Shown here piece by piece: positions 55,820-59,768 of a stretch of DNA of 64,000 bases. Below the pieces are notes generated by a model. That model ran no database searches. It was not told the origin of the DNA and worked only from the letters and a program-made list of their open reading frames with translations. Where the stretch lies: the NCBI GenBank assembly GCA_049325335.1, contig JBMOMC010000001.1, forward strand, positions 288,001 to 352,000. The letters run 5' to 3'. A program made the translations under genes and the position numbers. Positions within the stretch are counted from its first letter, which is position 1. Every line of letters begins with the position of its first letter. This stretch comes from Nitrospirota bacterium. GTDB taxonomy: Bacteria; Nitrospirota; Nitrospiria; 2-01-FULL-66-17.

Positions 55820-57724
55820 TTAGATCTTCGTGCTTGCGACAATACGCGCACGCGCCTCGGCTTCCTCGACCTCTCGCTGCAATCGGCGGCGCTCTTCCGC
55901 CTCTTTTTTCGCCGCGACGTTCTTGACTTCCGCCTGTAGCCCGCGCGTGGCCATGTCGCTAAACTTTTTAAACTCAACAACAGCATGCTGGGCAAGGCGC
56001 TCCTGCACAGAAATTGTCGCGGTATTCCCCTGAAACTTGAATAGATGGGGATCAAGCCCCACGGTGGAACTATACGTTCCCCGTGGCTTCTGAAAGTAGT
56101 CGACCCACATGTATTCCGGCTCGCGATCGAGTTGAAGGATGAGCGCCCCACTCCTCCAATCGAGCCCTAGTACGTTCACCGGCGCAATTACGTCTGGCGA
56201 GTGGGCGGGGACCACCTCCCCGCGCTTCGCATCGAGCTCTTGGCGCGCTACGAATTCGGATCGACGCCCGATGAGTTGCTTTTTGATCTCATCAAGTGAG
56301 GCCAGTCGATTCTCTGGTGCATGTTGGCGCATGTGCTCAACTAAACCGTCCAGGTAGGCATACGCTGAAGCCACGGATGCGATTGTCGGGAAACCTGTTC
56401 CCTGCGGCACGGTCCGTGTATACATTTCGTTGAGTATGAGACCAAGCGCGAAGATGTCGGCGCGATGGTCGACCGTCTGCCCTCTGCTCCGTTGCTCGGG
56501 GGCGGCGTAGAAAAAGTTCGCCAGTCGCTCGTTGTCACGGGTTTCGACCGCTGTATATAGTTCTTCCTCTTCGAAGTGGGCGATTCCGAAATCCGCCACA
56601 ATAAGGGTGTCGCGCGGCGCGTCATAGAGAATGTTCTCGGGCTTCAAGTCGCGGTGGTAAACCCCTTTCAGATTCGCTGCTTCCACCCCAGCCATGACCT
56701 GAGAGAACAGGGGCAACACCCGGTCGTGTGCAATCCCGGCTTCCATTAGCGAACGCAGGGTGGTTGGTTGGAGCGGCTTATCCTGATGCGACGCGACATA
56801 CAACGGCATAACATAGAAGGGGACGTTGATCCGGTCCCACTTCGCCACACCTGAATCTACGACTTTGATGACGTTTGCGTGGTTGAACTTCGCGCAGAAT
56901 GCGACCTCATTCTTGAACCGCTTCCGGCGCAGGGTCGTAACCCGATCGGGGAACAGACACTTGAGAGCGAACGGTTGGCCTCCCGAATCCTTCACCGCGA
57001 ATACCCGCCCAGTCCCTCCCTCTCCGACGACAGCGGTGACCGAATACGTGTCGAACGCGGTTTCGAACTCGGTCGGAGATCCGGTCCGGTTTGACGTTGC
57101 AACAAGCTGAGGGGGTTCCTGACCTACAGCGGATGCCGCAGTCACGAAGGACCCCGTGGCCGTCGAAAAAAACATATCCGTGTAACGCTGGTTGTCTCCC
57201 TTTAGCTTTTCGAGGATGGCCGGAACCTGCTGCTCAATACTCTGAAACTCAAGAAGTTCTCGCACTGAATCTGCGTCAAGGGTTACCTGGGAATAGCTGC
57301 CGTCCGCTACGCCGCCATGACCCGAACCCCAGAATCGGCCAGCGCTCCCGACAGTTCCGAGGAGCTCCTCGATGCGCCGGGGTTCGAGCCGAAGGCGTTC
57401 GGCAAGTTGATCGGCGCTGATTTTTCCGATATCGGGCTGTGAGATCACTAGGCTTTTCATCGCGAGGATTACCTGCTCCACATCCCGCAGTAGATCGGCT
57501 TCGGGATCGAGTACCAACAAACCCAAGACGCCAAGCTGGGCGCCATAGACGAAACCTCGACGGAGCCTATCGGGTTTAAACCCCTTCGGCAATTTATCGC
57601 GGAGTGCGACCCGGATGTGGTTATCACCAACCGGCTCCTTCGCTCGATAACGCCGGTAAAACTCCTCTAACCACAGACGTTCGTCTCCAGTCAAGAACTC
57701 GGTGATGGCTCTTGGAGGTTTCAT
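55820..57724 (-). CDS. Hanks-type Ser/Thr protein kinase with unknown N- and C-terminal domains
   Basis: GEGGTGRV, FALK, HRDLKPEN, DFG, APE and DIFALG; visibly more AT-rich than its neighbours. Confidence 0.92.
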   Translation of the reverse strand: MKPPRAITEFLTGDERLWLEEFYRRYRAKEPVGDNHIRVALRDKLPKGFKPDRLRRGFVYGAQLGVLGLLVLDPEADLLRDVEQVILAMKSLVISQPDIGKISADQLAERLRLEPRRIEELLGTVGSAGRFWGSGHGGVADGSYSQVTLDADSVRELLEFQSIEQQVPAILEKLKGDNQRYTDMFFSTATGSFVTAASAVGQEPPQLVATSNRTGSPTEFETAFDTYSVTAVVGEGGTGRVFAVKDSGGQPFALKCLFPDRVTTLRRKRFKNEVAFCAKFNHANVIKVVDSGVAKWDRINVPFYVMPLYVASHQDKPLQPTTLRSLMEAGIAHDRVLPLFSQVMAGVEAANLKGVYHRDLKPENILYDAPRDTLIVADFGIAHFEEEELYTAVETRDNERLANFFYAAPEQRSRGQTVDHRADIFALGLILNEMYTRTVPQGTGFPTIASVASAYAYLDGLVEHMRQHAPENRLASLDEIKKQLIGRRSEFVARQELDAKRGEVVPAHSPDVIAPVNVLGLDWRSGALILQLDREPEYMWVDYFQKPRGTYSSTVGLDPHLFKFQGNTATISVQERLAQHAVVEFKKFSDMATRGLQAEVKNVAAKKEAEERRRLQREVEEAEARARIVASTKI

Positions 57725-57951: not shown

Positions 57952-58818
57952 TCAAGGCGACCGCGCGCACCGCACGCCCGCGTCCGCAAAACTCATCTCC
58001 GGCTCGATTCTGAAGCGGTGCGCGCTACGGTAGAAATAATTGAGCGCGTAGTGGCCGGTGCCGCCCCAGCTCGATCCGCGCAGGACTTTGTGCTGTTGAC
58101 CGAAATCCTTACTCTCGTAGGTGCTCCCCGGATACGGCTGGTACCAGTCCGCGGTCCACTCCCACACGTTGCCCGCCATATCCTCCACGCCGTACGGGCT
58201 CTTGCCTTGTGGGAAACTGCCGACCGGCGCGAGGTCGTTTACCCCCGAACTCCCGGTGTTGGCTTTCTTGGCATCAAACTCGTTGCCCCACGGGTACTCG
58301 CGCGCATCCGTGCCGCGCGCGGCCTTTTCCCACTCGGCCTCGGTCGGCAACCGCTTGCCCGCCCACCCGCAGTACTGCTGCGCCTCGTACCAATTGATGT
58401 GCGTCACCGGATGGCGCTCCCGGCCCTTCGGGATCTCGCCGTTGGGCCACCCGCGCGGAGGCCTCGCTTTAGTCGCCTCAACGTACCTCTGGTACTGCGC
58501 GTTGGTGGTTTCGTACCGGTCGATATAGTAGGTCGGCAAGTCCACCGCATGTTGCGGGTGTTCGTCCAAATACAACGGTTTGGCCATGCCGAACTCCGAC
58601 CCCTTGCCCTCGGGGTCTTCCTTGTTGCTGCCCATCTGGAACGGGCCGGCCGGAATCTTGATCATGTCGCCGCCGGCGGGTCCTTTGGCGCAGGCGGTGA
58701 GCACGGCAAGGACCAAGACCGAGTGGGCGAGGGGGTGATGGGGGGAGGGGGTGAAAGGACGCAAAGATCGGATCTTTTTCGCCCATTCGCCCACTCTCCC
58801 CCTCGCCCCCTCGATCAT
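57952..58818 (-). CDS. FGE-sulfatase (SUMF1/NirV/PvdO-fold) lipoprotein lacking the CX4C motif
   Basis: Lipobox LTAC, RLPTEAEWEKAARG, DMAGNVWEW and GVRC. Confidence 0.88.
   Translation of the reverse strand: MIEGARGRVGEWAKKIRSLRPFTPSPHHPLAHSVLVLAVLTACAKGPAGGDMIKIPAGPFQMGSNKEDPEGKGSEFGMAKPLYLDEHPQHAVDLPTYYIDRYETTNAQYQRYVEATKARPPRGWPNGEIPKGRERHPVTHINWYEAQQYCGWAGKRLPTEAEWEKAARGTDAREYPWGNEFDAKKANTGSSGVNDLAPVGSFPQGKSPYGVEDMAGNVWEWTADWYQPYPGSTYESKDFGQQHKVLRGSSWGGTGHYALNYFYRSAHRFRIEPEMSFADAGVRCARSP
58721..58812. repeat. Inverted arrays of degenerate octamers (GAnKGGGn) around a central palindrome
   Basis: gagtgggc-gagggggt-gatggggg-gagggggt ... AAAGATC-G-GATCTTT ... ttcgccca-ttcgccca-ctctcccc-ctcgcccc. 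Confidence 0.7.
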
Positions 58819-58826
58819 TTCATCCC

Positions 58827-59768
58827 TCACTTCGCGCATCGGAACCCAAATCCGCTGTTTTTGGTTTCGCGTTTAAAAAACCCGCGATTAAACGTGGGCG
58901 CGGAGAGTCCGCAGCGGTAAAACGAGCAGTCCACGTACGACCCGCCCCGCACCACTTTGTATTGCGCGCCGAAATTGGGCGACGGGTGCGTGTTGCCGGG
59001 GTAGGCTTCGTACCAACTCTCGGTCCACTCCCACACGTTCCCGGCCACGTCGTAGAGACCATACGGACTCTTGCCCTTGGGGAAGCTGCCCACCGGCATC
59101 AGCCGTCCGATCCCGGCTTGCGGGGAATTCGATTTTTTGGCGTCGAACGTGTCCCCGTACGGGAACAGGCGGCCGTCGGTCCCCCGTGCGGCTTTCTCCC
59201 ACTCGGGTTCGGTGGGCAACCGCTTGCCGGCCCACGCGCAGTAGTCGTGCGCGTCGTACCACGTCACGTAGACCACCGGCAACCGCTCATCCCCCGGCGC
59301 AAACGCGCCGTTGCGCCAATGGTCCGGCGCCGGGCGGCCGGTGGCCGCGACGAATTTCGCGTACGCATCGTTGGTCACCTCATGGAGGTCGATCCAGTAC
59401 GGATGGTCGATCGCTTCGGTGTGCATGGGTCCTTCATCCGGGTGACGTTTGTCGTAGCCCATGATAAACGGACCCTCGGGAATCCGCGCCATGTCGTCAC
59501 GCACGGCCAGGGGCTTGTCCACGGACTTGTCCGCGCGCGGGCGCGCGTCGATGGGTGGCAACACGCGCGTATCCTCGCTGGCGCGCCGGCCGCCGTGGCA
59601 TCCGCCGCACGTCTGGGGATCGAACGCCAAAACATCCGCCGGGTGAGTCGGGACATGGCACGCCCGGCACGCTTCCTGTTCCCAGAACGGGTTCATGCCG
59701 TCATGCGGATCCGCCGACGCGCTCCCCGCGCTCAGCGCCAGCATCATCACCGCCCACGCCCACCGCAT
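58827..59768 (-). CDS. Exported diheme cytochrome c fused to an FGE-sulfatase domain
   Basis: Signal peptide, CRACH and CGGCH heme motifs, RLPTEPEWEKAARG, RGGSYVDCSFYRC and GFRC. Confidence 0.88.
   Translation of the reverse strand: MRWAWAVMMLALSAGSASADPHDGMNPFWEQEACRACHVPTHPADVLAFDPQTCGGCHGGRRASEDTRVLPPIDARPRADKSVDKPLAVRDDMARIPEGPFIMGYDKRHPDEGPMHTEAIDHPYWIDLHEVTNDAYAKFVAATGRPAPDHWRNGAFAPGDERLPVVYVTWYDAHDYCAWAGKRLPTEPEWEKAARGTDGRLFPYGDTFDAKKSNSPQAGIGRLMPVGSFPKGKSPYGLYDVAGNVWEWTESWYEAYPGNTHPSPNFGAQYKVVRGGSYVDCSFYRCGLSAPTFNRGFFKRETKNSGFGFRCAK

Follow-up and report, generated by a model that had tools for sequence, protein, structure and literature searches.

Among Cu(I) oxidases with a two-cysteine site, the formylglycine-generating enzyme (FGE) is the textbook case. 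It relies on a reductant from outside, and the majority of domains with its fold are not copper enzymes. The window analysed here, a stretch of 64,000 nucleotides from a Nitrospirota bacterium, contains two adjacent FGE-fold genes: gene A, which has two c-type haem motifs and a cysteine pair, and gene B, which encodes a predicted lipoprotein. Do they form a copper enzyme with an electron supply of its own, as a preliminary description of this DNA had proposed, or does the fold serve some other purpose here? The features on which the answer depends are as follows (positions in the window).

58827..59768, minus strand: gene A (P0001), predicted exported protein of 313 amino acids with two haem motifs and an FGE fold (open reading frame and PF03781 profile)
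59655..59669, minus strand: haem motif 1 of gene A, C34-x-x-C37-H38 (CRACH; residues 34–38)
59595..59609, minus strand: haem motif 2 of gene A, C54-x-x-C57-H58 (CGGCH; residues 54–58)
58830..59498, minus strand: FGE-fold (PF03781) domain of gene A, residues 91–313, short form without the substrate-binding insert (Pfam, MAFFT)
58911..58949, minus strand: active-site loop of gene A, RGGSYVD-C281-SFYR-C286, candidate copper or redox dithiol site (sequence and homologue alignment)
57952..58818, minus strand: gene B (P0002), predicted FGE-fold lipoprotein of 288 amino acids without the Cys pair (open reading frame and PF03781 profile)
58690..58701, minus strand: lipobox of gene B, LTA-C43, residues 40–43 (by eye)
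58048..58080, minus strand: loop of gene B, RGSSWGGTG-H256-Y, residues 247–257, with a near-invariant His (homologue alignment)

Both open reading frames proved real and co-oriented, with PF03781 matches of 188 bits for gene A and 207 bits for gene B against a cut-off of 23. Gene B begins 8 bases past the stop codon of gene A; its start ATG is preceded by a GAGG site, and an alternative in-frame ATG at 58839 would add 7 amino acids. On the 5′ side of gene A, sigma-70-like sites occurred at chance level (1 found, 0.5 expected).

Gene A reads as a hydrophobic N terminus, two CxxCH motifs, a linker of about 30 residues and the PF03781 domain, which agrees with the earlier account of two such motifs behind an export signal (the signal peptide of gene A and the lipobox of gene B were both assigned by eye). 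When the protein was shuffled 100,000 times, two CxxCH motifs appeared in 2 cases, and from the sequence we infer that the product is exported and has haem attached. Pfam returns c7/c3 matches in the haem region that are weak and below the cut-off, and no further invariant His or Met is present there among 120 homologues or in a 45-row alignment of members with two motifs, so that no distal haem ligand comes out as conserved. The CxxCH motifs are kept elsewhere: among the 120 gene A homologues listed, 88 have two, most commonly 15 residues apart (64 of the 88), 3 have one and 29 have none. Many of those without CxxCH are truncated at the start; about 14 of the homologues without two motifs appear complete with a signal peptide (by eye), and the A-type genes of two loci (L017 and L128) have no haem motif anywhere in their open frames. 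The haems are thus usual and not obligatory, and the proposed built-in electron supply fits most of the family but not these complete, secreted members.

The cysteine loop is more uniform. All 120 homologues listed match GGS[WYF]x[DN]Cx4CG and hence have the Cys pair, and the surrounding residues (D-C-x-x-Y-x-C-G-x-S-x4-N-R) are invariant or nearly so across phyla in the homologue alignments. The invariant cysteines of alignment A2 (120 rows, leaving out P0091, an unrelated fusion) are C281, C286, C177 and C311, the last two of which we take to correspond to the structural disulfide of the FGE fold. The pair had been placed directly after RGGSY; it is present as CX4C, but two residues intervene (RGGSY-VD-CSFYRC), one more than in sulfatase-linked FGEs.

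Gene B encodes, as first described, a predicted lipoprotein with RGSSWGGTGHY and no Cys pair. Its PF03781 domain spans residues 51–286, and its cysteines are the lipobox residue and two fold cysteines, C150 and C284, with no others. A lipobox-like motif, by a loose pattern, occurs in 58 of the 73 gene B homologues with a long enough N terminus. His256 lies in the loop that holds the cysteines in gene A and is present in 107 of the 108 rows of alignment A3, which leaves out 13 matches of 456–503 amino acids. Gene B had been likened to pFGE/SUMF2 (PDB 1Y4J), an FGE-fold paralogue that also lacks the Cys pair; pFGE/SUMF2 is in addition the best single-sequence PDB match of gene A, with a loop of equal length. 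The absence of the pair stands, but gene B is more than a copy that has lost its cysteines: unlike pFGE/SUMF2 it is a bacterial lipoprotein of the short form, and its His is nearly invariant. Because it is 52% identical to the gene A domain, the likeness of the two genes to SUMF1 and SUMF2 is an analogy. The region before the lipobox cysteine is unusually long (42 amino acids) because a palindromic element sits inside it. This imperfect, G+C-rich palindrome (58716–58820) runs in frame within the signal peptide and is predicted at −57 kcal/mol as RNA; pieces related to it occur at several other sites in the genome, some of them at the ends of other FGE genes.

The pairing is not peculiar to this genome. 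We gathered 39 A-type loci and dropped one that ends at a contig edge. A B-type gene lies beside the A-type gene in 32 of the remaining 38, directly downstream in 30, so the two genes do co-occur elsewhere, and neither this check nor that of CxxCH conservation refutes the preliminary description; a B-type gene was present in 7 of 67 other FGE-domain loci. In nine further proteobacterial loci, one of which repeats L020, the next FGE-fold gene was B-type every time. Six of the 38 loci have no adjacent partner, and for three neighbour-less A loci B-type genes were found elsewhere in the genome in all three cases. B-type genes also stand without A in L014, L031, L033 and L070. The first of these has two tandem B-type genes and no A-type gene nearby (G000:C43:361168-363072, or L014:9172-11061); they adjoin a Reg_prop propeller gene and converge on an operon for a 2-haem and a 5-haem cytochrome. 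A third A subtype (DCSxYRCG...RIxL), which forms one clade, has no adjacent partner (L027:7767-8900, L028:7950-8996, L112:377-1363). No A–B fusion was found among 150 plus 101 long proteins.

Pairwise identities among A proteins track those among B proteins (r = 0.79 for 31 pairs, equalled in 0 of 2,000 permutations), a correlation that is inflated by kin. Eight genomes, the host included, have two modules, and B identity within the same module type is 0.70 and 0.61 as against 0.51 across types. B therefore follows the paralogue type of its A rather than the genome, and duplication seems to have copied the whole module at once. The second pair of the host, of the other paralogue type, again combines a dihaem-Cys protein with a His-lipoprotein (G000:C44:101345-103446, or L013:9346-11444); it has the motifs DCLSYGCG and SSWSGVGHF, and its proteins are 54% and 50% identical to those of gene A and gene B.

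Members occur in Nitrospirota, Pseudomonadota, Thermodesulfobacteriota and Myxococcota. In a sample of the phylum, in which at most nine candidates were scored per genome, 17 of 301 genomes match at E 1e-70, and entire families come out at 0/50, 0/24 and 0/64. When the profile was searched against 1.84 billion representatives, multi-domain FGE repeats crowded the result; of the best 150 matches, 8 are clear members, and no new architecture appeared. The ESM Atlas yielded PF03781 clusters with automatic names and nothing else.

How far does gene A resemble a canonical FGE? The fold is common to both: against SUMF1 and the Thermomonospora curvata (T. curvata) and S. coelicolor enzymes (PDB 1Y1E, 6S07 and 6MUJ), the comparison gives Z 25–26 and an rmsd of 2.6–2.9 Å over about 213 residues. 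Its domain model scores within about one Z unit against FGE, CalU17, EgtB and pFGE (Z 25.1–26.4). That AlphaFold model has a mean pLDDT of 89.7, and the haem region of the full-length model lies below 50. Confidence in the loop is low, with a block mean of 40 in the full-length model and 55 in the domain model, of which it is the least confident part. In a MAFFT alignment with four sulfatase-linked FGEs, our controls, C281 and C286 coincide with the copper cysteines, each side gaining one residue, which makes the gene A loop two residues longer; the HMMER register differs and sets them on human C341 and C346, not C336 and C341. In human FGE, C346 presumably pairs with C235 in a disulfide. The cysteine partner of C346 is replaced by Ala in gene A (A194; HMMER alignment), which leaves the pair without an obvious disulfide partner outside the loop.

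Gene A has lost the peptide-binding parts of FGE. Canonical enzymes continue from the second Cys as C-x-R-Y-R (Arg276 in T. curvata), with RYR in all four controls, whereas the gene A family has C-G-[LIVM]-S, here GLS. They also have a 46-residue substrate-binding insert, where gene A shows a gap of 46 columns against all four controls; the substrate contacts and WW motif of T. curvata FGE lie at residues 84–109 (excerpts of PMC6676471), which map onto the missing insert by numbering and motif. A Trp and a Ser line the O2 pocket of FGE (same excerpts); their counterparts in gene A, W246 and S277, are invariant in alignment A1. Both are kept in the Cys-less gene B as well (MAFFT), so these residues are no marker of catalysis. 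A canonical FGE has a sulfatase client with C/SxPxR, and all four controls sit beside a sulfatase gene; gene A has no linked sulfatase, and neither of the two PF00884 genes of the host genome has the motif. Together with the missing RYR and insert, this supports the earlier suggestion of a substrate other than a sulfatase. Gene A, in turn, has an N-terminal dihaem module and a fixed partner gene, and canonical FGE has neither. Two quick trees, with and without the loop (28 of their generic rows a random pick), put A-type, B-type and canonical FGE sequences on separate branches, and in an AU test the union of A with canonical FGE is not rejected (p 0.54); the Cys pair may be inherited from FGE or convergent.

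Other relatives are no closer. EgtB/SenA/OvoA sulfoxide synthases, PorK/GldK, Tsi3 immunity proteins, CalU17 and ToxD all have an FGE-like domain in common with the pair. Among NCBIfam equivalog models (PvdO, EgtB, SenA, OvoA, GldK/PorK), the best scores of the two proteins are 114 and 120 bits where the cut-off is 360, and the rest are lower; PvdO itself, whose cut-off is 500, gives 58 and 65 bits. Neither gene has a DinB iron domain according to Pfam.

Do neighbouring genes point to a substrate? Downstream of gene B lies a tRNA-Met gene (57888–57817), and divergently upstream of gene A are a methyltransferase gene and serS. Directly downstream of the tRNA-Met gene is a 634-aa Ser/Thr kinase-domain gene (55820–57724) with a G+C content of about 57%, compared with 62–69%, which suggests a small insertion. 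We rejected the methyltransferase as a part of the module, its linkage being confined to the genus, and also as MpqE, since it scores 50 against 335 and the true MpqE lies elsewhere in the genome. Across lineages the flanks change (serS, mfd/secA, rho, lepA, tilS/panB, ABC-F), and with them no substrate emerges. Scanned neighbours yielded no sulfatase and no pyoverdine, T9SS or T6SS context, and the 121 neighbour sequences scanned (a few of them twice) held no copper chaperone or common substrate gene. With no substrate gene common to the loci, the A/B pair looks self-contained.

Cytochromes are nevertheless close by in several loci. The pair lies inside multihaem-cytochrome clusters in L133 and L136; a monohaem cytochrome gene is upstream of A in L021, L022, L025, L133, L134 and L136; and in P0429 a monohaem cytochrome is fused to A. 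In L037:7824-8864, which follows a monohaem cytochrome gene, it is a His-type (B) domain, not a Cys-type one, that bears the fused dihaem module. At L025:685-6809, A, B and a third FGE-fold gene come after two monohaem cytochromes in one run, preceded by haem O synthase and a divergent COX1-family gene. We also considered whether the module has a constant tie to quinone synthesis, to OmcE-type clusters or to oxidase genes and rejected all three, since each association holds in one lineage only.

The host genome has no haem-copper oxidase match; it has a bd-like oxidase, MpqE above the cut-off and several multicopper oxidases, and the presence of O2 and periplasmic copper in this organism is plausible. 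Eight of ten genomes (those of nine A carriers and of L037) have a COX1-family match over the cut-off. The COX1 family also includes NO reductases.

Of the 12 PF03781 genes in the host, 10 lack the Cys pair. Three FGE-fold genes with neither Cys pair nor His directly follow an 11-haem cytochrome gene in a porin-cytochrome cluster (G000:C1:246901-250008; L015), and an 801-codon frame at G000:C7:46636-49041 combines an FGE-fold domain with one CxxCH and beta-propeller-like repeats. Contigs C7 and C44 of the same genome also contain several multicopper-oxidase frames of 1,600–1,800 amino acids.

What, then, could the pair do? Since the cysteine loop of A is invariant and the corresponding loop of B keeps a near-invariant His, a two-subunit copper-thiolate enzyme is the most economical explanation. 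Our preferred reading, to which we give slightly less than an even chance, is accordingly worded as a candidate: a periplasmic redox enzyme of two subunits that combines a Cu-thiolate site with a haem relay, encoded by a conserved, self-contained module. Gene A would bind Cu(I) through C281 and C286, its two predicted c-type haems would act as the electron relay, and gene B, in putative contact with A, would tether the complex to the membrane and contribute His256 to the site. Electrons would most likely move from the haems to the Cys site and keep it reduced in the periplasm, because FGE turnover consumes two substrate electrons and a further two from an outside reductant (excerpts of PMC5324649). 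FGE cysteines that lack a reductant form a disulfide and bind no copper (same excerpts), a hazard that would give a tethered haem relay its purpose. A periplasmic enzyme of this kind would need a local reductant, be it tethered haems or a neighbouring cytochrome. The substrate is probably no sulfatase and more likely a small molecule or a redox protein of the envelope. A precedent by analogy is PvdO (PDB 5HHA), a periplasmic FGE-fold oxidoreductase in dihydropyoverdine oxidation, for which excerpts of PMC6206403 give the electron route as unknown. Doubtful, in our judgement, is the further step of seeing here a so far undescribed class of copper oxygenases or oxidases in the periplasm, a self-reducing FGE relative with a Cys2-Cu(I) site, a His from the partner subunit, a dihaem wire and a new envelope substrate, in metal-oxidizing and other chemolithotrophic hosts, the cultivated Candidatus Manganitrophus with its likely homologues among them.

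The same cysteines could work without a metal. C281 and C286 would then alternate between dithiol and disulfide and exchange electrons with the haems, and with its anchored partner gene A would act as a thiol–disulfide relay or assembly factor that matures or charges envelope cytochromes and oxidases. The cysteine pair of FGE itself readily goes to the disulfide in air (excerpts of PMC5324649), the counterpart of Arg276 and the substrate insert are absent, and the cytochrome clusters of L133 and L136 and the COX1-family gene, haem O synthase and two cytochromes ahead of the pair in L025 would supply suitable clients. Most loci, however, lie amid housekeeping genes, where no cytochrome is close enough to be a client. 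Haem carries one electron at a time and so suits a metal better than a disulfide, which takes two. CX4C in this loop is, moreover, the known Cu(I) site of the fold (excerpts of PMC6676471 and PMC5324649), and we regard a metal-free relay as rather unlikely.

Nor does the fold demand chemistry. The Cys pair might be a structural disulfide that fixes a binding loop, with A and B as scaffold or ligand-binding subunits in the manner of PorK/GldK and Tsi3 and the haems an optional addition for electron transfer or sensing. Binding is the role of FGE-fold proteins that lack the catalytic cysteines (bioRxiv 2021.05.21.445229, in part); 10 of the 12 PF03781 genes of the host lack the pair; some members of the family are haem-less, and structural scores do not separate FGE, CalU17, EgtB and pFGE. 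Against such a docking module, the D, Y, G, S, N and R around the pair are invariant or nearly so across phyla, beyond what is expected of a variable loop, a His stands at the corresponding position of the partner, and most members have redox cofactor motifs. We consider it unlikely.

Electrons might also flow the other way, from a periplasmic or membrane small molecule oxidized as by PvdO, out through the haems to the respiratory chain, and in some lineages in the service of quinone (methyl-plastoquinone) synthesis. A paralogous trio lies directly after ubiA-ubiD in L137–L142, six related genomes, and the cultivated Candidatus Manganitrophus noduliformans Mn1 has the order chorismate lyase, FGE, ubiA, ubiD, dihaem FGE (Ga0306812_103330), FGE (PMC9040806, Table S6). 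In the same table, that gene and Ga0306812_10529, which has no FGE gene among its listed neighbours, are annotated with PF03781 and a haem count of 2, occur in 8 of 8 genomes and are transcribed at the 75th and 61st percentiles; judged by annotation and gene order, both are probably homologues of the gene A family. The C1 hydroxylation step of the methyl-plastoquinone pathway is without an assigned enzyme in excerpts of PMC11874023. Against this dehydrogenase, the quinone link belongs to the other paralogue type, the FAD monooxygenase gene in L137–L142 is a simpler candidate for the C1 step, the ubiA/ubiD genes of the host lie on contig C6, which has no PF03781 gene, and proteobacterial carriers do not show the link. 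Quinone ring synthesis is, besides, cytoplasmic. An electron-exporting dehydrogenase thus seems quite improbable to us. Most improbable by far is a genuine FGE, a periplasmic enzyme that matures sulfatases, for which the common fold, the CX4C in the same loop and the AU test speak, and against which stand the missing RYR and insert, the two host PF00884 genes without C/SxPxR, and scanned neighbours without a sulfatase where all four canonical controls sit beside one.

Homologues of the pair are mislabelled throughout as 'required for sulfatase activity'. Our literature search found no paper describing the gene A/gene B family, and other supplements may still list such genes: the main text of PMC9040806 makes no mention of its dihaem FGE genes, which appear only in the supplementary table, and the main texts of PMC13712944, PMC11874023, bioRxiv 2023.01.26.525709, bioRxiv 2025.05.29.656830 and PMC11492766 do not mention FGE. 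The family is widespread and apparently an undescribed variant of the FGE-fold superfamily. Its two small soluble domains make a tractable system. If the cysteines are only structural, the pair would be a conserved but modest envelope module. If the copper-thiolate reading is true, the FGE fold would do copper chemistry beyond sulfatases, and the pair would show how a two-Cys Cu(I) site can be wired to the respiratory chain.
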